In this document: in pieces, positions 22,537 through 63,513 of the stretch
Layout: every line of letters starts with the position of its first letter
Numbering within the stretch: position 1 is the first letter of the stretch
Notes under the pieces: model-generated
Seen by the model: the letters and a program-made list of their open reading frames with translations, nothing else
Database searches by the model: none
What the model was told of the DNA's origin: nothing
Source: Escherichia phage phiWec179
Direction: 5' to 3' (one strand)
Sequence record: LC739533.1
DNA length: 64,000 bases
Position numbers and translations under genes: made by a program

Positions 22537-22545
22537 GGTGCGCCC

Positions 22546-22725: not shown

Positions 22726-22735
22726 GGTGTGCACC

Positions 22736-22855: not shown

Positions 22856-22878
22856 TGTGTTATCCTCTCGCTTGCTTT

Positions 22879-22935: not shown

Positions 22936-22954
22936 GCCTTTTTCTAAATTATTT

Positions 22955-23239
22955 TTATGCAGTAAACAGACCATCATTTACAACGGCGGCGATGATCTCC
23001 CGTGCCATTGATTCAGGGAACGGGGCGCTATAGTCCTGGCTTGTCTCGTCGCTGTCTGTTACCCAATGATAAGCCAACGAGTAAAAGCCTTTACTCCCTG
23101 TTTTCAGTGAAACGATGATCACTCGGTTAAGTCCATCGGTAAACGTTGCCGTTAATGTGTTATCATCTTGCGTCATGTTGGACAAGTAAGCGGCATCATT
23201 AACCAGGGAAAACAGTAGCACCGTGTTAGCTTTAACCAT
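22955..23239 (-). CDS. hypothetical protein
   Basis: GAGGAT + ATG at 23239 (MVKANTVLLF). Confidence 0.45.
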   Translation of the reverse strand: MVKANTVLLFSLVNDAAYLSNMTQDDNTLTATFTDGLNRVIIVSLKTGSKGFYSLAYHWVTDSDETSQDYSAPFPESMAREIIAAVVNDGLFTA

Positions 23240-23258
23240 GATTTGATCCTCAAACGGG

Positions 23259-23310
23259 CGCGGCACCATTGCCGCCCTACGTAATACACTTTACCTTATT
23301 TCTTCCAAAA
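23259..23310 (-). promoter_or_regulatory. promoter + 5'UTR stem-loop cassette (PeSL-like)
   Basis: TAAAGT -10, GTATTACGTAGG + hairpin GCGGCAATGGTGCCGC; -35 weak, overlaps upstream gene end. Confidence 0.45.
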
Positions 23311-23496
23311 AGCAAGTTTATTTGCAATTGGTGACAAATAACGTTTACCCGCGTAAAACAGTACAGCGACACTAACCACGGCGGCGATCTCATGCATAGC
23401 CGACGGGAAACGAGTATCATAATAAGATCCAATAATAGCAATAGCGGCAACGGCTGCAACGTCGATAATGATTTTTTCTTGTTTTGCGGTGATCAT
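23296..23496 (-). CDS. small membrane protein
   Basis: hydrophobic VAAVAAIAIIGSYY and VVSVAVLFYAG. Confidence 0.45.
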   Translation of the reverse strand: MITAKQEKIIIDVAAVAAIAIIGSYYDTRFPSAMHEIAAVVSVAVLFYAGKRYLSPIANKLAFWKK

Positions 23497-23516
23497 AATA
23501 TTTACCTTTTTGTATG

Positions 23517-23578
23517 GTGGGGGGAACTATTCCCCGCCCTGATGTAATACAGTTTAACAGATCCGGTTATAGTGTCAA
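23517..23578 (-). promoter_or_regulatory. promoter + 5'UTR stem-loop cassette (PeSL-like)
   Basis: TTGACA-N17-TAAACT GTATTACATCAGGGCGG + hairpin GGGAATAGTTCCCC. Confidence 0.55.
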
Positions 23579-23584
23579 CCACTT

Positions 23585-23770
23585 TTAAAGATATTTTATA
23601 CTGATAACATTTTCCGGTTTAACCTGGTTGTGATAAGCATCAATGTAAATCAAACCATCGTTAGAAACGCCCAGGATCACGCCTTGCGCAATAAAACCGT
23701 ATCGGTCGCGGTAACGTGCCGCCACTTTGTTCGCTGCGTTGTAGGCTGTTTTAATCTCGTTTAAGGTCAT
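23585..23770 (-). CDS. hypothetical protein
   Basis: 61 aa. Confidence 0.45.
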   Translation of the reverse strand: MTLNEIKTAYNAANKVAARYRDRYGFIAQGVILGVSNDGLIYIDAYHNQVKPENVISIKYL

Positions 23771-23797
23771 GTGCTGTTATCCTCTCGTTAGATATAA

Positions 23798-23828
23798 GAA
23801 AGGGCGCTATTTGCGCCCTTGATTTGTT
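23798..23828 (-). terminator. intergenic hairpin (terminator/attenuator-like)
   Basis: AAGGGCGCtatttGCGCCCTT, same motif family as 17023 and 17588. Confidence 0.4.
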
Positions 23829-23975
23829 TTAGTCTTCCAGGTCCATCCATGCACGTTTCTCGGTGCGGTCGCGCTTAGTTTTGTTGCGCTTGTCGCCCTT
23901 GCGGATCACTTCTTCATTCCACGCTGCGCGTGTTTTAGAAGATTGGATTTTTTCGGCGCGATTAGATGTATTCAT
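23829..23975 (-). CDS. small basic protein (48 aa)
   Basis: GAGGAAACATC + ATG after cassette; MNTSNRAEKIQSSKTRAAW...; below ORF-track cutoff. Confidence 0.35.
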   Translation of the reverse strand: MNTSNRAEKIQSSKTRAAWNEEVIRKGDKRNKTKRDRTEKRAWMDLED

Positions 23976-23995
23976 GATGTTTCCTCTTTTTAGTT

Positions 23996-24056
23996 GTGAG
24001 CGGCACCATTGCCGCCCTACGTGTTTTAATTTACTTTATTGTTTGATGCCTGTCAA
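23996..24056 (-). promoter_or_regulatory. promoter + 5'UTR stem-loop cassette (PeSL-like)
   Basis: TTGACA-N17-TAAATT + hairpin GCGGCAATGGTGCCGC. Confidence 0.55.
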
Positions 24057-24073
24057 CTACTTTTAAAAACTTT

Positions 24074-24427
24074 TTATTCGTGGGAAAGTGTAAGGATCAC
24101 ACCTGCAATATATAACCAATAGTTTTCCCTTTCTTTCTGGATCTTGTTTTCGCTACTACGCTCGTTAATGTACCCCCAGGATGTTAACAACCGATCTACT
24201 TCCCAATACTCGAAAGCTATATTAATATTTGACGGTAAACCTTGTAACCATGATGCTATTGCTCTGATAATGTTATGATCGTAACGTTTTTGATTATCGG
24301 TGTACCAATATTCAGATTTAAAACAGCGCATCAATTCCGCGATCTTCTCTTTCTCTTCTGTGATGCCATACTCGCTATAATCAATTGAGGCCAGAATATA
24401 AAGTTTAATTGCATTTTGTGCTTTCAT
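24074..24427 (-). CDS. hypothetical protein
   Basis: 117 aa; cassette upstream. Confidence 0.5.
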   Translation of the reverse strand: MKAQNAIKLYILASIDYSEYGITEEKEKIAELMRCFKSEYWYTDNQKRYDHNIIRAIASWLQGLPSNINIAFEYWEVDRLLTSWGYINERSSENKIQKERENYWLYIAGVILTLSHE

Positions 24428-24444
24428 GGTGTCTCTCTTCTGTT

Positions 24445-24504
24445 GTGAGCGGCACCATTGCCGCCCTATGTGTTACATCTTACCGGATTTTTAAAACTTG
24501 TCAA
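24445..24504 (-). promoter_or_regulatory. promoter + 5'UTR stem-loop cassette (PeSL-like)
   Basis: TTGACA-N17-TAAGAT GTAACACATAGG + hairpin GCGGCAATGGTGCCGC. Confidence 0.6.
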
Positions 24505-24726
24505 TCATTTTTCTACTATCATTTGATAACCTGTTTCAAGGTTAGTAAACACCGTGATCCCGTCCTGGCGTTCACTCATAAGCAAGCAAGGCGCTAACAT
24601 CCTTCCTACTTCCTTGCACTCGTTATAAGCGGCGGTAATGTCTCCCGCTGCTTTGTCTTCTGTGGTGAATGTATCGTTTACGTAAACTTTACCAGCGACA
24701 ACGGCGACAATAGCAAAAGTGATCAT
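24505..24726 (-). CDS. hypothetical protein
   Basis: GAGGAAAACATC + ATG at 24726 (MITFAIVAV). Confidence 0.45.
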   Translation of the reverse strand: MITFAIVAVVAGKVYVNDTFTTEDKAAGDITAAYNECKEVGRMLAPCLLMSERQDGITVFTNLETGYQMIVEK

Positions 24727-24804
24727 GATGTTTTCCTCTTTGTGTTTTTCGTTTTGATTAGTTGATAATACAGCAATTCGCAGATTAGTCTTTAGCAATT
24801 CATG

Positions 24805-25023
24805 CTATTTACTCACAACAGTATCGAAAACAAATTTTTCTTTGTTGTCGAAGCTAACATATCCGATTCGACCACGCAAGCCGCCAGTAGTGCCGTATTC
24901 GTAACCATCAAGGCCTTTAACCTTCCAATCCGTACCCATTAAAACCGCATTATATTTCTGACCAACTACAAACGCGCCACCAGTTGATTCAATGCAAACA
25001 ACTTTAATTTTACGGATTGCCAT
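24805..25023 (-). CDS. hypothetical protein
   Basis: 72 aa. Confidence 0.45.
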   Translation of the reverse strand: MAIRKIKVVCIESTGGAFVVGQKYNAVLMGTDWKVKGLDGYEYGTTGGLRGRIGYVSFDNKEKFVFDTVVSK

Positions 25024-25101
25024 TTTCTTTCTCTCTTTGTGGTGATTGGTTTCTCTTCTCTATAGCGCCCATTATAAGGCGCTATAACGAAAAGTCAACG
25101 A

Positions 25102-25269
25102 TTATTTTTTACGGCTTAAGGTGCCCAAGTTATCAGCGTGACGCAGACCAGGGAAGATCCAAGCGCCGGATTCATCTTTTACAGGTGCCTTAACACTTGC
25201 GCCCAGGTTGGCGGCGTTAACTTTACGTGCTACGTTGCGAGCGGCTTCACGGGTAGTAAAAGTAATCAT
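25102..25269 (-). CDS. small protein (55 aa)
   Basis: GAGGAAAACATC + ATG (MITFTTREAARNV...), same initiation module as 24505..24726; below ORF-track cutoff. Confidence 0.35.
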   Translation of the reverse strand: MITFTTREAARNVARKVNAANLGASVKAPVKDESGAWIFPGLRHADNLGTLSRKK

Positions 25270-25293
25270 GATGTTTTCCTCTTCTCTTTGTTA

Positions 25294-25355
25294 GGCGGTG
25301 GACCATTCCGCCGCCTTGATGTAATACAGTTTACTCTATTTTTATTTCTTTGCAA
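25294..25355 (-). promoter_or_regulatory. promoter + 5'UTR stem-loop cassette (PeSL-like)
   Basis: TTGCAA-N17-TAAACT GTATTACATCAAGG + hairpin CGGCGGAATGGTCCACCGCC. Confidence 0.55.
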
Positions 25356-25500
25356 CTACTTTTATATTTTCTTTCTTTGCCTCTTCCACCTGGTCCGCCC
25401 ACTGCTTACCCCACGTTTGAGCGTTATAGTGATATTGACAAAGAGCAACACCACGTTTTAAACCAGCGATAGACTTTTTACCACATTGACAAGTTTTCAT
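25345..25500 (-). CDS. small Cys-containing protein (51 aa, tentative)
   Basis: ATG at 25500 (MKTCQCGKKS...); weak SD; 3' end overlaps cassette. Confidence 0.25.
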
Positions 25501-25511
25501 TTTGTGATCCC

Positions 25512-25724
25512 TTAGTTGATGATAGTCAGTGTAAAATTATAATCACCATTCTTATATAACACCATATTACCGAAGGTGCCGACTCGACGCATATCCATAC
25601 GGATACCTATAACATCTTTAACGTCTTTAATGTTTTTAACGCCCGTGATATCTTTATTAAAATATTCCTCGTCTGAAAATAAAACTTGACTTGCATTTTT
25701 TAACAGTGTGCGGATATTAGCCAT
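25512..25724 (-). CDS. hypothetical protein
   Basis: 70 aa; cassette upstream. Confidence 0.45.
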   Translation of the reverse strand: MANIRTLLKNASQVLFSDEEYFNKDITGVKNIKDVKDVIGIRMDMRRVGTFGNMVLYKNGDYNFTLTIIN

Positions 25725-25745
25725 CGTGATAATCTCTCTTCTGTT

Positions 25746-25805
25746 GTGAGCGGCACCATTGCCGCCCTACGTAATACAGTTTACTCTTTTTCTTTCCGGT
25801 GTCAA
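25746..25805 (-). promoter_or_regulatory. promoter + 5'UTR stem-loop cassette (PeSL-like)
   Basis: TTGACA-N17-TAAACT GTATTACGTAGG + hairpin GCGGCAATGGTGCCGC. Confidence 0.6.
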
Positions 25806-25813
25806 CAATCTTT

Positions 25814-26041
25814 TTAGATTAATTCGTCCAGGCATAACAGGCGATCAACGTTGAGATCGGTCAGGCTGATGGTTGGCACCTGATAAGATTCGATGTACTC
25901 GACGCTTGCATATTCCCCAAAGTTAGCAATAGCCCACTTATTCAAGATCTCACATACATCATTAATCTTTTTGTTTGTTACAACTGCAATAACCTGGGAA
26001 GTGCCAACGGTGCCGGATACGCGAACAATATTGATAGCCAT
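25814..26041 (-). CDS. hypothetical protein
   Basis: 75 aa; cassette upstream. Confidence 0.45.
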   Translation of the reverse strand: MAINIVRVSGTVGTSQVIAVVTNKKINDVCEILNKWAIANFGEYASVEYIESYQVPTISLTDLNVDRLLCLDELI

Positions 26042-26061
26042 GATTTTTCTCTCTTCTGTTA

Positions 26062-26119
26062 GGCGGGGCGCTTGTCGCCCCTATGTGATACATCTTACAC
26101 TAATTTAAAACTTTGTCAA
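26062..26119 (-). promoter_or_regulatory. promoter + 5'UTR stem-loop cassette (PeSL-like)
   Basis: TTGACA-N17-TAAGAT GTATCACATAGG + hairpin GGCGACAAGCGCCCCGCC. Confidence 0.6.
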
Positions 26120-26214
26120 ATTATTTTCTATTTCTTCCGTAATAGCCCAATTTATGATCTAAGCTAAAACGTTTTGTGAGATAGGTCGAACGATGTTTCA
26201 TTTTTATGTCTCCT

Positions 26215-26454
26215 TTACATTCCAACCATAGCGGCGCGGATCGCGGTAGTGCTATACTTGAAACCGTCTGGAGTTTTATCTTGTCCAGTCTGTTCCAGAA
26301 AGAGCATCATATCACGCGCCGCATCGTTACGGTTAGAATTATAACTAATAAATTCTTTCGCGGTGCGGTATAATGATTCATCGTTATTAATCCAAAGGCT
26401 TACATTCCAATGAGTTTTGTTTTTGTGACCTAAGAACATTTTTGATTTAGCCAT
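26215..26454 (-). CDS. hypothetical protein
   Basis: 79 aa; cassette upstream. Confidence 0.45.
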   Translation of the reverse strand: MAKSKMFLGHKNKTHWNVSLWINNDESLYRTAKEFISYNSNRNDAARDMMLFLEQTGQDKTPDGFKYSTTAIRAAMVGM

Positions 26455-26475
26455 GATGTTAATCTCTTTTTCAGT

Positions 26476-26537
26476 GAGGCGGGAACTATTCCCGCGCCCT
26501 ATGTAATACAGTTTACTCTTTTTATTCGTGCTGTCAA
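26476..26537 (-). promoter_or_regulatory. promoter + 5'UTR stem-loop cassette (PeSL-like)
   Basis: TTGACA-N17-TAAACT GTATTACATAGG + hairpin CGGGAATAGTTCCCGCC. Confidence 0.55.
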
Positions 26538-26543
26538 TGCTTT

Positions 26544-26897
26544 TTATAAATCTTTTTTACGTTTTACATCGCTTGCATGACTGTATACAGCGATCCCATT
26601 ATCACGACAAAAACGGGTAAGGTATGATCCGCGTGAAAACTCTTTCCCTTCCAGGTCAACAACCTTGCTAAATTCTTCCAGGGCAACGGTATCAAAATGA
26701 TCACCATAACCATATTGAAACGGCACGTTAACAACTTCAATCAATTTACCGCCGATCTCAACGTCCACGCTTAAAGAAAAATATGTGTTACCGTAGGACT
26801 GTTGAAACCAGCGACGGGCGCTAATGTGAACGGCTTCAATCTCACCAATTTTAAATTGAGTGTTACCCAGGATCGCAACGTTGATATTTTTAGCCAT
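26544..26897 (-). CDS. hypothetical protein
   Basis: 117 aa; cassette upstream. Confidence 0.5.
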   Translation of the reverse strand: MAKNINVAILGNTQFKIGEIEAVHISARRWFQQSYGNTYFSLSVDVEIGGKLIEVVNVPFQYGYGDHFDTVALEEFSKVVDLEGKEFSRGSYLTRFCRDNGIAVYSHASDVKRKKDL

Positions 26898-26920
26898 GAT
26901 TTTTTCTCTCTTTTTGGTTA

Positions 26921-26974
26921 GTGGGAAGTGTTCCCGATAAAAGTTATTATGCTTATACTATCGTTTTTTGTCAA
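26921..26974 (-). promoter_or_regulatory. promoter + 5'UTR stem-loop cassette (divergent)
   Basis: TTGACA-N18-ATAATA + hairpin GGGAACACTTCCC. Confidence 0.45.
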
Positions 26975-26993
26975 TAGTATAAGACTAAAACTT

Positions 26994-27173
26994 TTAACGA
27001 TAATCATCGTAGGCTTTATTAACCTGGCGAATATAACATTCGAAAGCGAGATCAATAGAATCATATTCCCGCACATAATCCCCGTAAGAAACTACATACA
27101 CACCTTTTTGATCCTCAAACGTCATGATGATAGAATCCAGGCCGATGATTTCAGTTTTAGCGATGATAGTCAT
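26994..27173 (-). CDS. small protein (59 aa)
   Basis: ATG at 27173 after cassette (MTIIAKTEIIGLD...); below ORF-track cutoff. Confidence 0.35.
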   Translation of the reverse strand: MTIIAKTEIIGLDSIIMTFEDQKGVYVVSYGDYVREYDSIDLAFECYIRQVNKAYDDYR

Positions 27174-27194
27174 AATAATAACCTTTTTATTGTT

Positions 27195-27251
27195 GGCGGC
27201 ACCATTGCCGCCCTACGTGATAAACTATACCAGAATTTTAAACAGTGTCAA
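27195..27251 (-). promoter_or_regulatory. promoter + 5'UTR stem-loop cassette (PeSL-like)
   Basis: TTGACA-N17-TATAGT TTATCACGTAGG + hairpin GGCGGCAATGGTGCCGCC. Confidence 0.6.
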
Positions 27252-27261
27252 ACGTTTTTTC

Positions 27262-27507
27262 TTAGTTTGCGAAATATGGCGCGGCGGCTGATGCCGTTAA
27301 TCTCCAAGTGATTTGGCTATCGATCAAGTATTCTTCATTCTTGATCCGCACGGTATCAATCGAGAAGTTACTGAAAGGCTTGCTCTTGATTTTACGAACA
27401 ACCGTTACACGACGGTTATTTTTCATCTCTTTTAACTGAATCCAGGCGTAACCTTTTTCATTGACAAATATTTCATTGTGATTGGTGATAGATGATAAGT
27501 GTTTCAT
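27262..27507 (-). CDS. hypothetical protein
   Basis: 81 aa; cassette upstream. Confidence 0.45.
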   Translation of the reverse strand: MKHLSSITNHNEIFVNEKGYAWIQLKEMKNNRRVTVVRKIKSKPFSNFSIDTVRIKNEEYLIDSQITWRLTASAAAPYFAN

Positions 27508-27528
27508 GATTTTTCTCTCTTCTGTTTT

Positions 27529-27590
27529 GAGCGGTGGACCATTCCGCCGCCCTATGTGTTACATCTTACTACTTTTTTAAACATTGTCAA
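27529..27590 (-). promoter_or_regulatory. promoter + 5'UTR stem-loop cassette (PeSL-like)
   Basis: TTGACA-N17-TAAGAT GTAACACATAGG + hairpin GGCGGCGGAATGGTCCACCGC. Confidence 0.6.
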
Positions 27591-27598
27591 GGATATTT

Positions 27599-27880
27599 TT
27601 AACTATATGATCCACATCGTTCGCAGTAGTGATCATCGTCGTCATCTGCTACCTGGCTGATAAAATGATCTACCTTTGCTTTCAAATTATTATAATTGCT
27701 TTCTACTTCCTGTAGTCGTCGTTGGTAGTATTCCAGGGCTTGCACATAGGCCATTTGTTCGGTTTTAGCTTGCATAGCTAAATTCATGCCACGCGTTTCA
27801 TCGTATAACCAATAACCATCATTACATTCACTAATAGATAGTGTAGGGCTTAGTTTTTCGTGACGGATAACCTTGCTCAT
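27599..27880 (-). CDS. hypothetical protein
   Basis: 93 aa; C-terminal CERCGS. Confidence 0.45.
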   Translation of the reverse strand: MSKVIRHEKLSPTLSISECNDGYWLYDETRGMNLAMQAKTEQMAYVQALEYYQRRLQEVESNYNNLKAKVDHFISQVADDDDDHYCERCGSYS

Positions 27881-27890
27881 AGTGTGCCCC

Positions 27891-28001
27891 TTACTTCAAA
27901 ATGATTGTTGTGATAACTGCTACGGTGATCCAGAATGGAACAACTAAGATAATAGCGTTAATCGTTCCAACTGTCAAACTATTTTCTTTCTTGATCATCA
28001 T
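27891..28001 (-). CDS. small membrane peptide (36 aa)
   Basis: AAGGAAAAC + ATGATG; hydrophobic GTINAIILVVPFWITVAVITTIILK. Confidence 0.35.
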   Translation of the reverse strand: MMIKKENSLTVGTINAIILVVPFWITVAVITTIILK

Positions 28002-28008
28002 GTTTTCC

Positions 28009-28092
28009 TTACAGTGTCCAAAGAATGATTTCAAGTGCAGCACGGAAACCAGGAATAAAATTGATTGCAAAAAACAGGGAAGTAGTAAACAT
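28009..28092 (-). CDS. tiny hydrophobic peptide (27 aa, tentative)
   Basis: AAAGGA + ATG right after cassette; MFTTSLFFAINFIPGFRAALEIILWTL. Confidence 0.25.
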   Translation of the reverse strand: MFTTSLFFAINFIPGFRAALEIILWTL

Positions 28093-28110
28093 TTTTCTAT
28101 CCTTTCAGTT

Positions 28111-28170
28111 GTGAGCGGCACCATTGCCGCCTGATGAGTTAACTATAAGGGATCACGTTTTACCTGTCAA
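28111..28170 (-). promoter_or_regulatory. promoter + 5'UTR stem-loop cassette (PeSL-like)
   Basis: TTGACA-N17-TATAGT TAACTCATCAGG + hairpin CGGCAATGGTGCCG. Confidence 0.55.
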
Positions 28171-28724
28171 CCTAAATCATCAAAATAAAGATAATTTTTT
28201 TCGGCTTCTTTCTTCTCTTCCTGTGATGCCTCAAAGACTGGGAGAAAGTGATCAAAGGCGACGCACTCAACCGCTTGATCGTCTTCCTCTTCCTGGTCTT
28301 CCTCCTGGGCTATGGCTGCAATTTTGGCTAATTTCCTTTCAGCCTGGATCAGCTTACCATCTAAAACGCTTTTAGCGGTGCTGTACGCCGTCCAAGTGAT
28401 GCGCTTACTTTCCAGCGCGGCATCAAGCGCCGCTATCTTGCTGGGGTATTCATCCAGGACACGAAAAGCCGGATCTACCTTGTACAGCGGATTATCTTTC
28501 GCGCCGTCGCTATCATCTGCGGCGCTTGCAATGTCAGCGTTACCATTCGCCAGCCAACCAGGGCGATCGCTGCGTGTTTTGGTATTCCCATGACTACGCG
28601 CCGATCTGTTGCCTACTTGCTCGCCACTATAGCCAGGAGCATGATCGATCATGTCGTCCGGTATAATGCGCGGATCATTAACGTCATGTTTTACCCAGGA
28701 CTGGATCACATATTCGCGCCCCAT
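28167..28724 (-). CDS. hypothetical acidic protein
   Basis: 185 aa; higher GC than neighbours; EEDQEEEDDQ tract. Confidence 0.5.
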   Translation of the reverse strand: MGREYVIQSWVKHDVNDPRIIPDDMIDHAPGYSGEQVGNRSARSHGNTKTRSDRPGWLANGNADIASAADDSDGAKDNPLYKVDPAFRVLDEYPSKIAALDAALESKRITWTAYSTAKSVLDGKLIQAERKLAKIAAIAQEEDQEEEDDQAVECVAFDHFLPVFEASQEEKKEAEKNYLYFDDLG

Positions 28725-28984
28725 TATACACCCCTTTTAACAATCATTTCACACACAAGAAATAAGCTGGCGGAATCACGGCAAGGATAGAAAGATGTAC
28801 GATAATCTCTCACCCCTGCTTTTATGATCTCCGTGGTTTTACCTGATAGCACATTGTAAATAGTGTAACTTGTCGGACTGTTTTTATATACCTTGCCAGG
28901 GTAGATCATAACATAACGAGCAAGGTTATAAAATTCCTCGTTACGAAAGGCTATGATCTTCCCGCATACCTTAAGAAAGTGCAC
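28724..28984 (-). CDS. hypothetical protein
   Basis: 86 aa. Confidence 0.45.
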   Translation of the reverse strand: MHFLKVCGKIIAFRNEEFYNLARYVMIYPGKVYKNSPTSYTIYNVLSGKTTEIIKAGVRDYRTSFYPCRDSASLFLVCEMIVKRGV

Positions 28985-28994
28985 GTTAGCCCCC

Positions 28995-29267
28995 TTACAG
29001 CAAAAAGTTTACTTGTCTTGCTGTTAATGTAGTATCAACCATTTTCGGGCTTTTATAATTGACAAAACGCGCGGTTTTTTCAATAGCGAAGCCGAGATAA
29101 TCTTGTTTGTTGAAATTACATTCTTTCTTAAATGTTTCCCGTGCAATGGCGATCGCTGCGTCCAGGGATAAACGCCCGTCAATATTGATATTTGCGAAAG
29201 ATCCGCCACCGCTCATAGGTTTACCAGTGGTGCCCGTTACGATCATTGTTGCGCTATATGATGCCAT
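28995..29267 (-). CDS. hypothetical protein
   Basis: AGAGATTATCATC + ATG at 29267 (MASYSATMIV). Confidence 0.45.
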   Translation of the reverse strand: MASYSATMIVTGTTGKPMSGGGSFANINIDGRLSLDAAIAIARETFKKECNFNKQDYLGFAIEKTARFVNYKSPKMVDTTLTARQVNFLL

Positions 29268-29287
29268 GATGATAATCTCTCTTAGTT

Positions 29288-29351
29288 GTGAGCGGTGGAC
29301 CATTCCGCCGCTCTACGTGATACATCTTATCAGGTTGTTGCCTGTTGTCAA
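29288..29351 (-). promoter_or_regulatory. promoter + 5'UTR stem-loop cassette (PeSL-like)
   Basis: TTGACA-N17-TAAGAT GTATCACGTAGAG + hairpin CGGCGGAATGGTCCACCGC. Confidence 0.6.
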
Positions 29352-29357
29352 TACTTT

Positions 29358-29555
29358 TTATTCAAGCCCTACGATATGTAAGACACGGCGATTAGCAATA
29401 GCGTGCTGGTCTTCTGTTATAACGCCCATTTCTACCAGTGAATCAAGAAAGGAAAGCACCGTGATATATTCGTCATCGGGTACACTCATTTCATTAGTAC
29501 CGTTTACCACTACGTTGATTTGTCCTGCTTTCGCTACAATGTGCAATGTTGCCAT
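29358..29555 (-). CDS. hypothetical protein
   Basis: 65 aa; long GC-rich leader upstream. Confidence 0.45.
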   Translation of the reverse strand: MATLHIVAKAGQINVVVNGTNEMSVPDDEYITVLSFLDSLVEMGVITEDQHAIANRRVLHIVGLE

Positions 29556-30127: not shown

Positions 30128-30351
30128 GTTTTACATACAGAAGAGGAAGCGCCACCCCACGGCGTAAAGGCGGGGCTAACATACCAGGGGCACTGGTTGG
30201 AAGGTCGATCGCCGGGAGGCTGGGCGCTATATATTTGTAAAGAAATGTAAAGATAAAATAATCGCTTGCTTTCCTGGCTGGATCTGTTATTCTTATTACA
30301 TGGCGAGGGGACACGGGAGCGCGAGACAATCACCGGACCTGCCCGTCATTC

Positions 30352-30465
30352 TGCAAATGAGAAAAATTCTCATTTGCAAATAAGACTCATTCGCATTTAA
30401 TAATTGAATGAGAATCATTCTCATTCTCATTCGTATTTCGATTTTAAGTGAGAATAATTCTCATT
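30352..30465. promoter_or_regulatory. three operator-like palindromes sharing half-site AATGAGAA
   Basis: TGCAAATGAGAAaaaTTCTCATTTGCA (30352-30378, perfect 12-3-12); AATGAGAATcATTCTCATT (30407-30425); TGAGAATaATTCTCA (about 30449-30463). Confidence 0.5.
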
Positions 30466-30476
30466 TCGGTAATTTT

Positions 30477-30680
30477 CACGTAAACTTTAGAATTTGCTTT
30501 TCAACTTTCACTTTTGTAAAAGCAAAAAAACTTTAAATACCTGGTGCGCGCGACTTTTTAAAAAATTTTTCTCGGTTTTTTGCTTTGAAATCTGGCCCAC
30601 CAATTTGAGATAGTGTACGTAAACTTTAGAATTTGGTTTTGGATTCTCACTTTTGTAAACTCGTAAAAAGTTTAAATAAT
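30477..30680. repeat. imperfect ~64-bp direct repeat (two copies)
   Basis: ACGTAAACTTTAGAATTTG..CACTTTTGTAAA..TTTAAATA at 30477-30539 and 30616-30680. Confidence 0.5.
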
Positions 30681-30805
30681 TGTAGGGATTTTGAGATAGT
30701 TTGCTTGTAAGGTTTGAGATAATCCTTCCCGAAGATGTTACGCAGCCTACAGCCTACCTGAATGCTCGTCTAACGAGATTAACTCTAAAAGATGAGTGTT
30801 GGTGT

Positions 30806-30846
30806 AGCTAAAGAGAAAAGGCTCTCTACGGTGTTGTAGGAGCCTT
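30806..30846 (-). terminator. rho-independent-like terminator after NADAR gene
   Basis: minus strand hairpin AAGGCTC..GAGCCTT followed by TTCTCTTT, about 70 nt past stop of 30917..31444. Confidence 0.4.
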
Positions 30847-30916
30847 ATTTCTGTGGCACAAAGTTGACGTATTCTTTTTAAAAACGAATTTTTTCAAAAT
30901 ATCACGAATATCGCCT

Positions 30917-31444
30917 TTATGGTATTTTGGCTGGGAACAGGATTTTAATCAGATTGTTGTGGTATTGTCCTAAAAGATTCTGCCCTTTCCAGTTGGCAGG
31001 ATTAAGCACCCCTGGTTCGTACATACCCATTCCAATTCCGTAAACCTTATCATAAGGACTCGCCTCAACGAACGTTTTGAATTGGTACAGTCGCAAGTCA
31101 GAATAAAGATCAGGGTTCTGTGTATACTTCAAGCATAAGCCTCGCATTACGATACGCTCTCGGTACTCTTCCCACATGTCATTATTAAAACCAGACACCG
31201 CTCGACCCATGCGCTTGTAGTATGCCTGTCCCTTCTCGTCGTCACGCTTCATTGAGTGATCAAGGATAGCTGCTGCGATTACCTGATCCTTGAACAGCAA
31301 AGCCTTACGCCACATCATGTATTGCTCTACACAACAGAAAGTTTCATTGTACCCTGGTTCCGTCTCTGTGAATGGTGCAATGTACCAATTGCTAAACACA
31401 TCTTTATGTGAAAAGAAGAATACATATTCATTAGTTATTCGCAT
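30917..31444 (-). CDS. NADAR (YbiA-like) family protein
   Basis: FFFSHKDVFSNW...ETFCCVEQYMMWRKALLFKD...MWEEYRERIVMRGL..KYTQNPDL...FVEASPYDKVYGIGMG...NWKGQNLLGQ matches NADAR signature. Confidence 0.8.
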   Translation of the reverse strand: MRITNEYVFFFSHKDVFSNWYIAPFTETEPGYNETFCCVEQYMMWRKALLFKDQVIAAAILDHSMKRDDEKGQAYYKRMGRAVSGFNNDMWEEYRERIVMRGLCLKYTQNPDLYSDLRLYQFKTFVEASPYDKVYGIGMGMYEPGVLNPANWKGQNLLGQYHNNLIKILFPAKIP

Positions 31445-58087: not shown

Positions 58088-58888
58088 ATGTCCAATAAAA
58101 TTAGCCTGAAGAAACGCCAAGACACCCTGACCATTTCACTGAAGAAAAAGAAAATTGTCAACGAAGATCAAAAGATCGTTCTGCGTGTTGCAAGCGCACT
58201 GGATATCTCCGGCAGCATGTCCAGCCTGTATCGTAACGGTACTGTAAGTGAGTTTGTTGGTAAGCTGCTTCCGTTTGGTATGCTGTTCGATGATAACGCG
58301 CAGATCGATATGTGGGCTTTCAACAATAGCTCTCGTGAAATCACTCCAGCAACTGCTGATGTGTATGATGATTACGTTGGTAAATGCATTAATGGTCGTG
58401 TAACAGTCCAGGGTGGCACAAGCTATGCACCTGTTATGCAGGATATTTACGATTCCTACTTCGGTAGCACCACTAAATATGAAACTGTAGAAACCCCTGT
58501 AACCAAAGAAGTTCCTAAGAAAGGTTTCTTCAACCGTTTACTGGGTAAAACCGAAACTGTAGAAGCTATTGTAGAAAAAACTGTAGCCGTTGCTGTGCCT
58601 GGTGTAGACGTTACTCCGGCAGTTGTGTTCTTCCAGACAGATGGAGAGAACGATGATCCGAGCCGTGTACTCTCCGTACTGGAAAAGAACAAGGGTAAAC
58701 CTATTTACTGGTTCATGGTGGGTGTTGGTAGTGCTCGTTTCTCTTTCCTGAAAGATTTGGCTGAAGCTTACGACAACGTAGCATTCATTGGTCTGAACGA
58801 TCTTTCCTTGACAGACGAGCAGCTTTACGATAAACTCTTGTCTGAAGAGTTCGGTGAGTGGGTTGAAAAGGTTGGTGCTAAGAAATGA
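58088..58888 (+). CDS. vWA-domain protein with TerD-like N-terminus (TerY/TerF-like)
   Basis: N-terminal KISLKK..ISLKKK; MIDAS DISGSM, GGTSYAP, QTDGEND. Confidence 0.65.
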   Translation: MSNKISLKKRQDTLTISLKKKKIVNEDQKIVLRVASALDISGSMSSLYRNGTVSEFVGKLLPFGMLFDDNAQIDMWAFNNSSREITPATADVYDDYVGKCINGRVTVQGGTSYAPVMQDIYDSYFGSTTKYETVETPVTKEVPKKGFFNRLLGKTETVEAIVEKTVAVAVPGVDVTPAVVFFQTDGENDDPSRVLSVLEKNKGKPIYWFMVGVGSARFSFLKDLAEAYDNVAFIGLNDLSLTDEQLYDKLLSEEFGEWVEKVGAKK

Positions 58889-59127
58889 TCGACACGCTGA
58901 TCTCTCAAACGGTGTTGCAAGTGATGCGTGAGAGAGAAGCTTTCATCATGAAGGGTCTTAAAGATTATTTTGGGACTCTTTCTTTGGAAGAACTCAAACT
59001 ACGCGTTGAGATCCATGCGTATCCTTCTTATGAAGAATGGATTGACAAAGCAAATAAAGCTGTTATAATGCGTATCAACAAACCAGAAATCACGACAGGA
59101 GGACAAGATGTTAAATTTCGCCATTAA
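58885..59127 (+). CDS. hypothetical protein
   Basis: 80 aa; ATGA overlap. Confidence 0.45.
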   Translation: MIDTLISQTVLQVMREREAFIMKGLKDYFGTLSLEELKLRVEIHAYPSYEEWIDKANKAVIMRINKPEITTGGQDVKFRH

Positions 59128-59389
59128 GAAAGATAGCAAACCAAAGATTCAGACTTGTCGCATTGCAAATCTTACACATGGTGATTTGTTTGTTCTGAAA
59201 AGTGCCTACGACGAAGACGGTCTTGATCCAGAAGCAGTCGTCGTTTATATGGTGTTGCGGCGAGATGAAGACACCAAGCACCCATACAATGCGGTAGAGA
59301 TGAATTACAATGCAATGTTGTGCTCAATACACTATACGGCAGAGTTGGTGCAGGTAGAGTTAACAGTTAACGAAATTAAACTTAAATAA
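59108..59389 (+). CDS. small protein, paralog B2 (pairs with TerD gene)
   Basis: AGGAGG + ATG (MLNFAIKKDSKPK); paralog of 57814..58086. Confidence 0.45.
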   Translation: MLNFAIKKDSKPKIQTCRIANLTHGDLFVLKSAYDEDGLDPEAVVVYMVLRRDEDTKHPYNAVEMNYNAMLCSIHYTAELVQVELTVNEIKLK

Positions 59390-59404
59390 TAGAGGAGACA
59401 CATA

Positions 59405-60007
59405 ATGAGCGATAAAATTTCCCTGAAAAAAGGTTCCACCGAGAAGATTTCCCTGAAGAAAGTTGCTCCGGCACTGAAAGAACTGCGTCTGGAGTTCTCC
59501 TGGAAATCAAACTCTAAACTGGATCTGGATGTAAGCGCACTTGTATGCCGACACAACGCCTCTGGCAACCCTGAAATGCTGTCTGCACGTCATCTGGTTT
59601 GTTATGCTAACAAGTTTGATCCAGAACGTTCTGTATTCGCAGGTGATGATGTTCGTGACGGTACTGGTCAAATGGAACAAATCGATGTAACCTTGGCTAA
59701 GATCTCCGATAAAGCCGAAGAGATTGCTTTTGTCCTAACTATTGATGATGAAACGGGTCAGAAACGTCTGGGTCACGCTACTGAAGGTATGCTGAAGATC
59801 TTTGATGCCGAGCGTAACGTTGAGATCCTGGACTTCGACTTCTTGGCTCCTGAAGTGGCTGGTAATACCATCTGCCACGTAGCTTCCCTGGTTCGTGAAG
59901 ACGGTGAATGGAAACTGAAAGCTTACGGTGTTGGTAAAGCAGGTATGGATATCTGTGATGTGGTTATGGCCTTCGGTGGTCAGAAAGAATGGTACGATTG
60001 CCCGTAA
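59405..60007 (+). CDS. terD: TerD-family (tellurium resistance / Ca-binding) protein
   Basis: alignable by eye over full length to canonical TerD: N-terminal ISLKKG..ISLKK, LDLDVSAL, GDDVRDGTGQMEQIDV, IAFVLTIDD, GEWKLKAYGVG. Confidence 0.9.
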   Translation: MSDKISLKKGSTEKISLKKVAPALKELRLEFSWKSNSKLDLDVSALVCRHNASGNPEMLSARHLVCYANKFDPERSVFAGDDVRDGTGQMEQIDVTLAKISDKAEEIAFVLTIDDETGQKRLGHATEGMLKIFDAERNVEILDFDFLAPEVAGNTICHVASLVREDGEWKLKAYGVGKAGMDICDVVMAFGGQKEWYDCP

Positions 60008-60027
60008 GATTTAACTGAAATGTTGTT

Positions 60028-60043
60028 GGGGGAGAAATCCCCC
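60028..60043 (+). terminator. hairpin after TerD gene
   Basis: GGGGGAgaaaTCCCCC, 20 nt past stop. Confidence 0.4.
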
Positions 60044-60044
60044 A

Positions 60045-60073
60045 TTGCAAAAACGCCTCTCATGTGTTATACT
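60045..60073 (+). promoter_or_regulatory. sigma70-like promoter
   Basis: TTGCAA-N17-TATACT upstream of 60105. Confidence 0.45.
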
Positions 60074-60104
60074 GGTAGTTCATTCACCCAAAAGGAGGCA
60101 AAAT

Positions 60105-60626
60105 TTGCTGATAAAAAACTTTGTAACAGTTGCGTTACTATCCTTAACTGCTTTTACATTTACACCTGTCACGGCAACCGCCGAAGCTGCAAACGTAAAG
60201 ACTGCTAAAGTAGTTCACAAATGTGCAAAGCAAGATACTAAAGAAAATCTCTTGGCTTGTGCAATTTACGCTGAAAGTCGTAATCAGGGTAAACGTGGGA
60301 TGTATGCTGTAGGTAATGTAGTATTGAACAGGAAAGGTGATGATTACTTCCCTGATAATATTAAAGATATTCTCTTCCAACGAGGACAATTCTCTTACAG
60401 GAAGAAGTTTAACGTTACCGAAGCAGAGCGATGGAAAGAAGCTAAAGCTATCGCAAAACGACTTATATACCTGGATACACACTTCCCTACACTTAGAGAA
60501 GCCCAGGACATGACAAAAGGTGCGACATTTTTTAAGAAAGTAAAAACCCGTGCACACTGGACAAAAGATATGGTCTTAGTGTATCGTTATAAAGAACATC
60601 AGTTCTACCTACCGACAAGGAGCTAA
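60105..60626 (+). CDS. SleB-like cell wall hydrolase with signal peptide
   Basis: AAGGAGG + TTG start; signal-like FVTVALLSLTAFTFTPVTATAEA; LACAIYAESRNQGKRGMYAVGNVVLNRKGDDYFP...QRGQFSY. Confidence 0.7.
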   Translation: MLIKNFVTVALLSLTAFTFTPVTATAEAANVKTAKVVHKCAKQDTKENLLACAIYAESRNQGKRGMYAVGNVVLNRKGDDYFPDNIKDILFQRGQFSYRKKFNVTEAERWKEAKAIAKRLIYLDTHFPTLREAQDMTKGATFFKKVKTRAHWTKDMVLVYRYKEHQFYLPTRS

Positions 60627-60627
60627 T

Positions 60628-60912
60628 ATGCGAGAAGATAATACTGTTGTTGTTGCGAGCTATCTCGTTATCGGTTTAACCGAAGAAGATGTGTACTACA
60701 TTCGTAAAGGTTTGGAAGCTTACGCTACCCTCTTCATGGAAGACGAAAGCGATGTTGATAAATATTCCGTGGAGTTGATCAACGACAGTATTTATCCTTG
60801 CATAGCTCTTAAAGTAGATGCTGTTCTGTGGGAGCGTTTTGCAAGAAGTCACGATGCTATTGAATCTTCAATGGTTATGACACAAAACAACATTTTGGGG
60901 GTGATTCACTAA
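60628..60912 (+). CDS. hypothetical protein
   Basis: AAGGAG + ATG; 94 aa. Confidence 0.45.
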   Translation: MREDNTVVVASYLVIGLTEEDVYYIRKGLEAYATLFMEDESDVDKYSVELINDSIYPCIALKVDAVLWERFARSHDAIESSMVMTQNNILGVIH

Positions 60913-61142
60913 TGGCAGATATCATTGAGGTAAACTTCCGTACTCGGAAGAAAGTAGAGAAATATACAATATTGAAAAGTGTTTGCGTTGTTTGTTTCAA
61001 TAGTGTAATCTACGATTCAAGAAAGGGCGAAGACGGTAATGAGCCGTATATCGAACTGTCAAAGGGCAACGGTAGTTGCATTTGTAAAGCTTGTGCTGTT
61101 CAGATTAAGGGGGTTGTTGATGAAAACGAATGGGATAAATAA
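60912..61142 (+). CDS. hypothetical Cys-rich protein
   Basis: CVVCFNS ... CICKAC cysteine pairs. Confidence 0.4.
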   Translation: MADIIEVNFRTRKKVEKYTILKSVCVVCFNSVIYDSRKGEDGNEPYIELSKGNGSCICKACAVQIKGVVDENEWDK

Positions 61143-61314
61143 TACAGGGGAACTTTCTCTTGAGAACGTAACAAACGACAAACTGATTAAAATGCGAGAT
61201 GTAGCTTTGGATCATCTCCAAGACTCCTTCAAGGAATATATGGAAGCACGGGATCGTGTGCTTGAGATTCGTCAAGCAATGGTTAAACGCGGAATGGTGG
61301 TGGATTCTAAATAA
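61120..61314 (+). CDS. hypothetical protein
   Basis: AAGGGGG + ATG at 61120 (MKTNGINNTG). Confidence 0.4.
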   Translation: MKTNGINNTGELSLENVTNDKLIKMRDVALDHLQDSFKEYMEARDRVLEIRQAMVKRGMVVDSK

Positions 61315-61323
61315 GGGGTCAGT

Positions 61324-61887
61324 ATGATTTATTATATTACCCCCTATCTAAGTGGAGATATCGGCAAAGCAATTAACGATGCTATTGCCGTTCTTCACGA
61401 AGATAGTTGGGTCTGTTTACGTGATATCGATACCATGTTCTTACTGCCAGACCAACCTTCTATGTTGGAAGATTTGGTAGCAACCAATCCACCGTTTGAT
61501 GTGATCGGTGCGTCTTGTAATCGTTTAGGTAGTGGTTATCAACTTCTCGGTGGAAAGATTGATGATGATCCTAACATTCTGAACCATATTTCTCATGCCA
61601 AAGTTGCTCGTGATTACTATGGTGATGAAATTGAAGAAGTCCCACAAGGCACTCCCTTAGCAGGTTTCTTTCTATTGTTCAGGAAATCATTATGGAAGGA
61701 GATCCCTTTTGAAGAACGTACCATCCAGTTCGATATAATCTTCTCAAACACTTTACATGAACGAGGAAAAAGGTTAGGATTGATGCGTGGGATGTATCTC
61801 TTCCATATTTACCGTTTAGGTCAAAAAGATCCTCAACGGGCAATATCACACCTTATGCATTGTCATGATCACCGGAAAACTATTTAG
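61324..61887 (+). CDS. hypothetical protein
   Basis: AAGGGG + ATG; 187 aa. Confidence 0.5.
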   Translation: MIYYITPYLSGDIGKAINDAIAVLHEDSWVCLRDIDTMFLLPDQPSMLEDLVATNPPFDVIGASCNRLGSGYQLLGGKIDDDPNILNHISHAKVARDYYGDEIEEVPQGTPLAGFFLLFRKSLWKEIPFEERTIQFDIIFSNTLHERGKRLGLMRGMYLFHIYRLGQKDPQRAISHLMHCHDHRKTI

Positions 61888-61895
61888 GGGGAAAG

Positions 61896-62579
61896 ATGGA
61901 AAATATTAAAATTGGGGTTGGCGTTATCACTGTAGGTGTTCGTCCACTTAAAGATTACATGGTTGCACCTGGTGTAGACTTCAAAGTGTTTCACGATCCC
62001 GATCGTAAAGGTGTAGCTTATGCTCGCAACCAATTAATGAAACAGTTCTACGATGAAGGTTTTGACTACTGGTTCATTTTTGACGATGATTGCTATCCGG
62101 TTAAACGTGGCTGGGAAGAATACTTCGTTAACCAGGCTGTCGAGAATGGTTGGGACTTCTTCGGTATGCCAGAATACTTCAAAGATACTGTGATAGGTTG
62201 TTCTGGAGAAGTAGTCTTCTGGGAATTGGCTATGTGTCAGTTTGCAATGTATTCTCGTGCAACTGTTGAGACGATGGGTTATTTCCGTCCTTATACACAC
62301 GGATATGGTTTCGAAGATGCAGAATGGACTAATCGTCTGAAAGCTTCAGGTTTGAATAAAGGACTCCAGGGCGTACCTTGTCCGATGCGCATTATGGCGT
62401 ACATTCACCCCGACGATGTTTTCGGTGATAACCCTTTACCTTTTGCTAATCTGACAAAAGAAGAGAAAGAATCAGCAATCGGGATCAATTGGGAAGAATA
62501 CAAACTGTCTTTGGAGGATATTAATAATGGCAAAACACACATCTCTTTTGAAGAGGCTGAAGGATATGGCGTTAAATAA
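61896..62579 (+). CDS. GT-A-fold glycosyltransferase-like protein
   Basis: N-terminal IGVGVITVG, DxD-type FIFDDDCYP, downstream GYGFEDAEWTNRL. Confidence 0.5.
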   Translation: MENIKIGVGVITVGVRPLKDYMVAPGVDFKVFHDPDRKGVAYARNQLMKQFYDEGFDYWFIFDDDCYPVKRGWEEYFVNQAVENGWDFFGMPEYFKDTVIGCSGEVVFWELAMCQFAMYSRATVETMGYFRPYTHGYGFEDAEWTNRLKASGLNKGLQGVPCPMRIMAYIHPDDVFGDNPLPFANLTKEEKESAIGINWEEYKLSLEDINNGKTHISFEEAEGYGVK

Positions 62580-63513
62580 GAAACCAACCCTACTGTGTGA
62601 CAACAAATTCAACAGTGGTTGTGATTACCATCGCATTGTCATGCCATTTTCTAACACAGAGATCAAGCCACGTACTGATGTACTGGTCTTTAACCGCATC
62701 TTCTCGAAGGGTGCTGATGAAGTAGCCAAACTTAAGCGCCAAGGTGTTAAGATTGTTGTAGATTTGGATGATTTCTATCAATTGAATCCAGAACACTACC
62801 TGGCGCATCTGTACGCGCCAAACACCCGCACAATCGTGGAAATGGTTAAAATAGCAGATATTGTCATTGTCACAACCGAATACCTGGCGTACAAAGTTCG
62901 TCACTTAAACTCTAACGTTGTTGTGATCCGAAATGCTCTACCGTTTGATGATGGTCAATTCACTCTCTCGAATGATCGTACTTCGGGTACGCCTATCATT
63001 TGGGCTGGAGGTGCGAGTCATGAACCGGATTTACGTTTGCTTTCAAACACTTTTGATGATAGTTTATTGTCTATCGCAGGGTATGAAGCGAGCAGCACAG
63101 TGACAGGGCAAGAGTGGGTTAAGATCCGCCGTAGTTTGCCTAATGCGCAGTATAAACCTGCTGTAGATTCTTTGAATCATTATATGTCTGCATACGATGG
63201 TCATGCTATGGCTGTAGCTCCGTTAGTAGATAACGACTTCAACCATTGCAAGAGCAACCTGAAAGTATTAGAAGCTGGTGCTAAAGGCATTCCAATCGTT
63301 TGTTCTAAGGTATTACCTTACTACAACCCGATCGATGCCCGTGCAGTAACCTTCGCAGATAGCAAAGCAGAGTGGCACTATGAAGTTGTAAAACTACTTC
63401 GTAATCCAAACTACCGCGAAGATCGTGGACTGTTCTTGGCTGAACATGTTCGTACTCACTACAACTTGAAGGATGCAAACGAATTGCGTCGTCAAGTGAT
63501 CGAAAGTCTGTAG
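62566..63513 (+). CDS. glycosyltransferase-like protein (tandem paralog 1; start uncertain)
   Basis: start at 62566 chosen by alignment to paralog N-terminus (alternative 62527); CDYHRIVMPF, DLDDFYQ, NALPFDDGQFTLSNDRTSGTPIIWAGGASHEPDL. Confidence 0.45.
   Translation: MALNKKPTLLCDNKFNSGCDYHRIVMPFSNTEIKPRTDVLVFNRIFSKGADEVAKLKRQGVKIVVDLDDFYQLNPEHYLAHLYAPNTRTIVEMVKIADIVIVTTEYLAYKVRHLNSNVVVIRNALPFDDGQFTLSNDRTSGTPIIWAGGASHEPDLRLLSNTFDDSLLSIAGYEASSTVTGQEWVKIRRSLPNAQYKPAVDSLNHYMSAYDGHAMAVAPLVDNDFNHCKSNLKVLEAGAKGIPIVCSKVLPYYNPIDARAVTFADSKAEWHYEVVKLLRNPNYREDRGLFLAEHVRTHYNLKDANELRRQVIESL

Follow-up and report, generated by a model that had tools for sequence, protein, structure and literature searches.

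Gene, start codon and relatives

We analysed a stretch of 64,000 nucleotides (nt) from Escherichia phage phiWec179 (sequence record LC739533.1; hereafter the window, with positions counted from its first letter), and within it the plus-strand gene at 60105 to 60626, which is predicted to encode a signal-peptide-bearing cell wall hydrolase of the SleB (Hydrolase_2) family. The open reading frame (ORF) runs from a TTG at 60105-60107 to a TAA at 60624-60626. The features of the gene and its product are as follows.

60105..60626, plus strand: coding sequence (CDS) for a SleB-family (Hydrolase_2) peptidoglycan hydrolase precursor; 173 amino acids (aa), TTG start, TAA stop, 20.0 kDa, isoelectric point (pI) 9.9
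60093-60098, plus strand: Shine-Dalgarno (SD) sequence AGGAGG, 6 nt 5' of the TTG, invariant in relatives
60105..60188, plus strand: predicted Sec signal peptide, residues 1-28, from a rule-based analysis; n-region MLIKN, h-region FVTVALLSLTAFTF, c-region TPVTATAEA
60189..60623, plus strand: predicted mature periplasmic enzyme, residues 29-173; 145 aa, 17.0 kDa, pI 9.9
60273-60275, plus strand: codon of Glu57, predicted to be catalytic from its alignment to the structures 4F55 and 4FET and from its invariance
60222-60224 and 60258-60260, plus strand: codons of Cys40 and Cys52, invariant in an 18-sequence family alignment

Comparison with related phages supports the start codon. Every Phapecoctavirus-like relative examined (viral metagenome contigs; 68-98% aa identity) has the same TTG with its ribosome-binding site, and the annotators of PsgM04F and Mt1B1_P17 chose the identical 522-nt CDS, with the label 'endolysin'; other labels for orthologues are 'putative cell wall hydrolase', 'spore cortex-lytic enzyme precursor' and 'SleB'. 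We rejected an alternative start at 60045, the mechanical start of the ORF, because the TTG at that position is the −35 hexamer of the promoter described below and lacks a ribosome-binding site, and because relatives annotate 60105.

Over bases 59000-62000 the window matches Escherichia phage phiWec181 (LC739534.1, 154.5 kb, Stephanstirmvirinae, Phapecoctavirus) at 100% identity; the figure is 96.7-97.3% for three related records and ~78% for many other Phapecoctavirus genomes. The exact sequence of the SleB gene is already deposited, as a 'hypothetical protein' of phiWec181, and the whole window corresponds to LC739534.1 21676-85675 (genome rebuilt from the record), so that features outside the window are given below on the phiWec181 map. 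A blastn search of 5,426 complete E. coli genomes at the 'distant' setting gave no match to the gene, which indicates that E. coli prophages and chromosomes do not commonly carry it.

SleB family, fold and predicted catalytic residue

Profile, sequence and structure comparisons all lead to the SleB family. The Pfam profile Hydrolase_2 (PF07486; curated cut-off 27 bits) matches residues 61-168 with E=5.7e-17 and 62.6 bits, over profile positions 2-100 of 100; it is the only domain detected, with no N-terminal PG_binding_1 domain. PHROG 938, 'endolysin', matches at 5e-20. Among solved structures, those of Bacillus SleB (4F55 and 4FET) are the sole sequence matches (phmmer, E=3e-4), and in the alignment YAESRNQ of the phage protein lies over YGESRGE, so that Glu57 sits over the catalytic glutamate of SleB. 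Glu57 is invariant in a 38-sequence alignment, as are N75, R76, F96 and W152. An AlphaFold2 model built on 38 homologues has a mean predicted local distance difference test score (pLDDT) of 84.7, with residues 1-30 below 50 and the remainder mostly above 90. In a Foldseek search of the Protein Data Bank (PDB) the model matched 4FET and 4F55 at E ~2e-5, probability 1.0 and target-normalised template-modelling scores of 0.70-0.77, and the next match had E ~3. Against predicted viral structures it matched dozens of phage proteins named 'cell wall hydrolase SleB', some with the domain inside proteins of more than 1,000 aa (for example, 1,076-1,292 aa in BFVD).

The phage protein thus shares fold, core motifs and aligned catalytic Glu with Bacillus SleB (PDB 4F55, 4FET; PF07486), but it is only 21-23% identical over the domain and has a signal peptide and a short linker in place of PG_binding_1. 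Its substrate would also have to differ: the host has no spore cortex, and the substrate must presumably be ordinary Gram-negative peptidoglycan and not muramic-delta-lactam cortex. A further difference concerns cysteines. Conserved Cys pairs occur in the Gram-negative and phage forms, and Bacillus SleB has none in the stretch that aligns; in T5-like and bacterial forms the conserved pair is a different one from Cys40/Cys52. Cys40 and Cys52 may form a disulfide, and periplasmic disulfides of this kind would fit export. We conclude that the gene product is, as predicted from these comparisons, a small basic peptidoglycan enzyme of the SleB/Hydrolase_2 family that is expected to cleave glycan strands.

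N-terminal signal

The N-terminus of the protein shows the tripartite n/h/c anatomy of a Sec signal peptide, with small residues at positions −3 and −1. A hydrophobic core of 14 residues is followed by T-P and by an A-x-A site, and signal peptidase I is predicted to cut after A-E-A (A28|A29; next residues ANVK), with Ala at both −3 and −1. The end of the segment closely resembles that of the E. coli PhoA signal (…FTPVT…A|). The best 18-residue mean hydrophobicity (Kyte-Doolittle scale) is 1.67, as compared with 2.2-2.3 for signal-anchor-release (SAR) domains (n=2: P1 Lyz, R21) and 1.4-2.0 for classical E. coli signal peptides (n=4).

The same anatomy is seen across the family. The 17 homologues share a nearly invariant h-region; their c-region varies most, with the small residues at −3 and −1 mostly kept, and the stretch that follows the predicted cut, ANVKTAKVVHKC, is conserved. 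Distant homologues also begin with short, typical signal peptides, which are shorter still in the rV5-like and T5-like forms (nomo_28 of an rV5-like phage, KIKIFAIILSALLSLPVVA|AP; bas27_0077 of the T5-like phage TrudiGerster, MKAALLLTAALAFSFNSHA|TH), and signal peptides likewise head PVP-SE1 gp243, metagenomic relatives and a Pseudomonas putida protein.

Two known modes of Sec-dependent export offer themselves for comparison. SAR endolysins, such as P1 Lyz and R21 of phage 21, have an uncleaved, weakly hydrophobic N-terminal transmembrane domain of ~18-22 residues that can leave the membrane. The phage SleB protein resembles them in its Ala/Thr/Ser-rich hydrophobic N-terminus, in its predicted Sec-dependent export and in having cysteines near the active site, but it differs from them in having no Cys in the N-terminal segment, no adjacent pinholin gene and another catalytic family. 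The absence of cysteine from this segment also led us to reject a lipoprotein. Lys44 of Oenococcus phage fOg44 is a Sec-exported endolysin with a cleavable signal peptide, from a phage of a Gram-positive host and from another catalytic family. The likeness to Lys44 lies in a muralytic enzyme with a cleavable N-terminal signal peptide, predicted here to be exported without a holin, and export of this kind would require that dosage or activity of the enzyme be controlled; the difference is that phiWec181 also has a cytoplasmic T4-type lysozyme.

We favour a classical cleavable Sec signal peptide, which fits the N-terminus better than a SAR anchor does, and we infer, with good support, that the protein is exported by the Sec pathway. 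A cytoplasmic endolysin would have no export signal; the N-terminus here is signal-like, unlike that of the T4-e-like GH24 protein of phiWec181. A first-pass annotation, made by a model from the letters and their ORFs, had proposed a SleB-type hydrolase core behind an N-terminal hydrophobic signal or anchor, a probable TTG start and a promoter of the gene's own. The core is borne out by the PF07486 match and by the sequence and fold matches to 4F55 and 4FET; the hydrophobic segment is present, conserved in 17 homologues and laid out as a signal peptide; and the TTG, with AGGAGG 6 nt upstream, is kept with its ribosome-binding site in relatives and begins the same annotated CDS. The promoter, still a prediction, is upheld by the conservation described next.

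Promoter, upstream hairpin and possible masking of the ribosome-binding site

Between the stop codon of the preceding TerD-domain gene (60007) and the SleB gene lie a hairpin and a predicted promoter, and a second copy of the same promoter type occurs elsewhere in the genome.

60028..60043, plus strand: GC-rich stem-loop GGGGGA-GAAA-TCCCCC, between the TerD-domain gene stop and the −35 element, ending 1 nt before the −35 hexamer
60045..60073, plus strand: sigma-70-like promoter; −35 TTGCAA at 60045-60050, 17-nt spacer, TG of an extended −10 at 60065-60066, −10 TATACT at 60068-60073
LC739534.1 130062-130033, minus strand: second copy of the promoter type, preceding an operon for a small acidic protein, an i-spanin, an o-spanin and the large terminase

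The predicted transcription start is near 60080. A scan for promoter-like sites is in itself uninformative, with 12 found in this 6-kb stretch and 12.0 expected, and the promoter call rests on conservation and not on the scan: seven relatives share TTGCAA, the TG and −10 positions 1, 2 and 6 without change and diverge in the remaining spacer. The exact promoter pattern occurs once in the window, as compared with 0.13 expected. Promoter-like sequence is found in only a handful of the intergenic gaps of the plus-strand gene array that extends from ~36.5 kb to the end of the window, and so 'its own promoter' is a fair description of the predicted element. The hairpin keeps its position in all seven aligned relatives, with differing sequence; four stem pairs are invariant or nearly so, and the outer pairs vary. 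It has no clear U-tract and would therefore be at best a weak terminator or a stabiliser of RNA 3' ends, and a terminator scan did not call it.

Intergenic sequences of the form 'hairpin, TTGCA[AT], 17-18 nt, TGnTAnnnT' number only two genome-wide in phiWec181, the copy at the SleB gene and the one other copy listed above, which is conserved in Mt1B1_P17 with TTGCAA as its −35 element. The arrangement of hairpin and TTGCAA promoter was seen only in the Phapecoctavirus-like group. We dropped an attempt to read a temporal class from the promoter sequence: in phiWec181, sigma-70-like promoters precede structural genes too, so that early and late expression are not told apart.

The promoter may have a second function in RNA. 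In RNA that reads through from the TerD-domain gene, the SD sequence and start codon (60093-60108) can form pairs with the −35 hexamer and a C/U-rich element of the spacer (60047-60060). The C/U-rich element varies among relatives (GCCTCT, CCTCCCTCC, GCTCCTCC), with complementarity to AGGAGG kept, and 89.6% of cells pair in the seven relatives. No covariation signal for the pairing was found in these seven relatives, since the 3' side of the pairing is invariant. Folding z-scores are −0.4 to −0.5, so that shuffled sequences fold just as well, and in the short transcript, too, the SD can be weakly paired. As a weak lead, then, read-through RNA may mask the SleB gene's ribosome-binding site, and RNA initiated at the promoter, which would not have the inhibitory arm, may leave it free. 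Such an arrangement is established for T4 gene e, at which early read-through RNA masks the ribosome-binding site, promoter-initiated RNA does not, and the promoter is embedded in the 5' arm (PMC3014915). The SleB gene resembles gene e in that the −35 element and spacer of its own promoter can pair with its own SD and start, and it differs in that the embedded promoter is sigma-70-like and not a T4 late promoter.

Other lysis genes and the gene neighbourhood

The genome of phiWec181 encodes other lysis proteins, at a distance from the SleB gene. A 167-aa Phage_lysozyme-domain protein with no signal peptide is encoded ~78 kb upstream of the SleB gene (LC739534.1 map) and shares 50% identity with T4 lysozyme across 158 residues (E=3e-58); its aligned Glu, Asp and Thr correspond to the catalytic residues of the T4 enzyme. 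An orthologue of T4 gpe is also present in Mt1B1_P17. The signal-less lysozyme implies a holin somewhere in the genome. An i-spanin with an N-terminal transmembrane segment and an o-spanin with the lipobox LMMTGC adjoin the large terminase gene. T4-type cytoplasmic lysozyme, inferred holin and i-/o-spanins probably constitute a canonical lysis route that is encoded away from the SleB gene.

The SleB gene itself is a standalone ORF in a plus-strand replication/auxiliary region, and in relatives the structural genes lie more than 10 kb downstream, on the opposite strand. Upstream are a vWA-TerF-like gene (58088-58888, E=2.7e-37) and the TerD-domain gene (59405-60007, E=1.8e-29). Downstream are genes for two small conserved soluble proteins (60628-61142), then four glycosyltransferase genes, and then genes for a primase/helicase and a DNA polymerase. 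As to adjoining holin or spanin genes, which the first-pass annotation had suggested as a check, no ORF with a transmembrane segment (holin, pinholin or spanin) was found among those flanking the SleB gene; the spanin pair exists, but elsewhere, next to the terminase gene in phiWec181.

Several details of the neighbouring modules can be added. A few kb upstream of the Ter-like genes, the annotations of relatives include a TerC membrane protein and a 'tellurite resistance' protein. The first of the two small downstream proteins is acidic (94 aa, PHROG 16257) and starts 1 nt after the SleB stop with its own SD sequence; the second is Cys-rich (76 aa, PHROG 15360) with a zinc-finger-like CxxC…CxCxxC arrangement. 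Neither has a transmembrane segment or a Pfam hit. The glycosyltransferase run occupies 61324-63513 and beyond (PHROG 14179, E=1e-102; weak Pfam matches to GT2, TAGT and GT1), and it is relatives that annotate four genes there. In phiWec181, dTDP-rhamnose pathway genes are also present (LC739534.1 1-3127).

Homologues in other phage groups

Databases and papers already record the gene family, its occurrence in these phages and a signal peptide, published for a Vequintavirinae homologue, and two wall-degrading enzymes have been described in Phapecoctavirus, Justusliebigvirus, Seunavirus, Septuagintavirus and Certrevirus. The genome paper on the Phapecoctavirus iGC_PHA_EC001 notes the two-enzyme arrangement, a second wall-degrading enzyme is likewise reported in the literature on the rV5-like group and on a phi92-like phage, and Septuagintavirus W70 has an M15C peptidase and a SleB-like protein. 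In T5 another enzyme is treated as the endolysin, as presumably gp146 is in PVP-SE1. The most informative published case is Certrevirus CB7, which has an M15 peptidase and a SleB-like protein, CB7_83, with a signal peptide and with toxicity upon expression in E. coli ('data not shown'); a candidate class II holin of 65 aa with two transmembrane segments overlaps the SleB-like gene, and of the proteins from the region that contains CB7_83, virion mass spectrometry found only CB7_55 (PMC7344957). Our search of a literature library for experimental work on secreted phage SleB-like proteins gave only annotation-level statements and the 'data not shown' toxicity of CB7_83, and a search for Stephanstirmvirinae or Vequintavirinae transcriptomes that could time the gene gave nothing usable.

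In our comparisons, signal-bearing SleB homologues recur in rV5-like and T5-like phages. The Vequintavirinae proteins (rV5 SleB, PVP-SE1 gp243, CB7_83, CR3_087, nomo_28) and T5-like SleB are also standalone proteins of ~150-180 aa with a signal peptide and Hydrolase_2, are 35-43% identical to the phiWec protein over residues 30-170, and are likewise encoded outside the structural module in phages with another muralytic enzyme. The neighbours differ: nomo has rIIA/B, CB7 has the putative holin, and the present gene has Ter-like and glycosyltransferase genes beside it. Since the partner enzyme varies by lineage (lysozyme types or M15 peptidase) and the SleB-like gene recurs, a separate, non-redundant role is suggested.

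The rV5-like genes for PVP-SE1 gp243 and nomo_28 have non-ATG starts (TTG, GTG) and directly follow a terminator-like hairpin, so that weak start codons recur in the family. The annotated start of PVP-SE1 gp243 has no visible ribosome-binding site and may be wrong. Some host labels attached to relatives also look doubtful: 'Pseudomonas phage PsgM04F' (OR584014.1) is 97% identical to the coliphage over the SleB region, and several 'Campylobacter phage' records (MG065689.1 and related MG0656xx) contain SleB genes of coliphage type (Phapecoctavirus or rV5-like).

Probable role of the SleB-family protein

The molecular identity of the protein is much more certain than its biological role. The reading that we prefer, and in which we place moderate confidence, is that of a Sec-exported, processed, holin-independent accessory periplasmic lysin, made at low dose from its own promoter beside a canonical lysis set. 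According to this reading, a precursor with a classical Sec signal peptide would cross the inner membrane with no need of a holin, signal peptidase I would cut after A-E-A28, and the mature protein would fold in the periplasm, probably with a Cys40-Cys52 disulfide. Glu57 would be used to cut the host sacculus, by analogy with the lytic transglycosylase SleB. Expression would be low and autonomous, driven by the conserved sigma-70-like promoter behind the hairpin and set by a strong ribosome-binding site together with a conserved weak TTG. The result would be a second, accessory muralytic enzyme that acts on the wall from within the periplasm, weakening or remodelling it, and that probably aids lysis in this way.

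Several observations weigh against this reading. The A-x-A site is no proof of cleavage, and F6-A26 could in principle span the membrane. Bacillus SleB needs the muramic-delta-lactam of spore cortex, and activity of the phage protein on ordinary E. coli peptidoglycan is assumed. The promoter type shared with the spanin/terminase operon hints, from two cases only, that the SleB gene is co-regulated with that lysis/late operon. The overlap with a candidate holin gene argues for a primary lysis role of the homologue in CB7.

The last two of these points also favour a different account, in which the protein is the principal secreted endolysin, either cleaved like Lys44 or tethered in the SAR manner, and accumulates in the periplasm until the membrane potential is collapsed by a holin or pinholin, which unleashes it; the T4-e-like lysozyme would then be redundant or have another role. 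Apart from the promoter type, which within the genome is common only to the SleB gene and the spanin/terminase operon, and the Certrevirus homologue that is toxic in E. coli and overlapped by a putative class II holin gene, this account can draw on the 'endolysin' label in relatives, on the match to PHROG 938 and on the constancy of the SleB-like gene across lineages that have exchanged the other muralytic gene. It has to contend with a canonical set that looks complete elsewhere in the genome (T4-like lysozyme and spanins), with the absence of any ORF with a transmembrane segment next to a SleB gene that is embedded in a replication/auxiliary region, and with PVP-SE1 and T5, in which other enzymes are treated as endolysins; for the SAR form in particular, the hydrophobic core is shorter, and over 18 residues less hydrophobic, than SAR domains are. 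We consider this account unlikely. The first-pass annotation had suggested a phage endolysin of the SAR type exported by the Sec pathway. The Sec signal in that suggestion stands; the SAR mechanism is disfavoured by the 14-residue core, the A-x-A site and the hydrophobicity of 1.67; and the designation as 'the' endolysin is made doubtful by the T4-like lysozyme and the spanins encoded elsewhere.

A periplasmic function outside lysis seems to us improbable, if not negligibly so. Here the enzyme would remodel the sacculus, generate anhydromuropeptides, or interfere with superinfecting phages or with envelope-based host defences, perhaps in connection with the Ter-like or glycosyltransferase modules. 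The location of the gene, between the TerD/vWA-TerF genes and the four glycosyltransferase genes and upstream of primase and DNA polymerase, speaks for such a function, as do the positions of the homologous genes immediately upstream of rIIA/rIIB in rV5-like nomo and outside any annotated lysis cassette in T5-like TrudiGerster; the conserved weak TTG/GTG starts further suggest low dosage. There is, however, no conserved partner gene common to the three phage groups, and the retention of the catalytic Glu and the toxicity of a homologue upon expression both fit simple wall damage.

A virion-associated lysin that aids tail penetration of the cell wall at infection, which the first-pass annotation had offered as its other possibility, is very improbable even though SleB domains occur inside 1,076-1,292-aa proteins of other phages (BFVD), because a Sec-exported protein would not be available in the cytoplasm, where virions assemble, and because the gene, a standalone ORF of 173 aa, lies outside the structural module and, in CB7, only CB7_55 of the homologue's region and not CB7_83 was detected in virions (PMC7344957).

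Extending the preferred reading of an accessory periplasmic lysin beyond this phage, we propose tentatively, as a possibility and not as an expectation, that signal-bearing SleB enzymes constitute a distinct 'second lysin' class in the Stephanstirmvirinae, Vequintavirinae and T5-like phages, at least three lineages of large virulent enterobacterial phages whose conventional endolysins differ. Members of this class would be exported early or holin-independently, would be kept at low dose by weak starts and possibly by translation confined to own-promoter RNA through masking of the ribosome-binding site in the style of T4 gene e, and would pre-weaken or remodel the sacculus or have a non-lysis function. 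If this proposal is true, the canonical holin-endolysin-spanin model is incomplete for these phages.

The findings raise the question of why several groups of large lytic coliphages, unrelated to one another, retain a wall hydrolase exported by the Sec pathway beside a conventional cytoplasmic endolysin. A holin-independent periplasmic muralytic enzyme must be restrained, and its timing bears on the control of phage lysis. For annotation, labelling the SleB gene 'the endolysin' probably obscures the true endolysin. An enzyme that is small, basic and, by prediction, naturally exported into the Gram-negative periplasm may also interest developers of enzyme-based antibacterials.

Other features of the window

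Two further regions lie at a distance from the SleB gene. In a non-coding region of ~1 kb at 30251-31289, a 21-nt palindromic unit, AATGAGAAnnATTCTCATT, occurs four times (30355-30466), and there are two direct repeats of 62 nt (30478-30539 and 30617-30678); the region has the appearance of an operator array or an origin of replication. On the minus strand, ~17000-29500 has dense near-consensus TTGACA-16/17-TAnnnT promoters, many with A-rich upstream elements, each before a small ORF, and is, to judge from this organisation, a typical early-gene array that would be read by host RNA polymerase.

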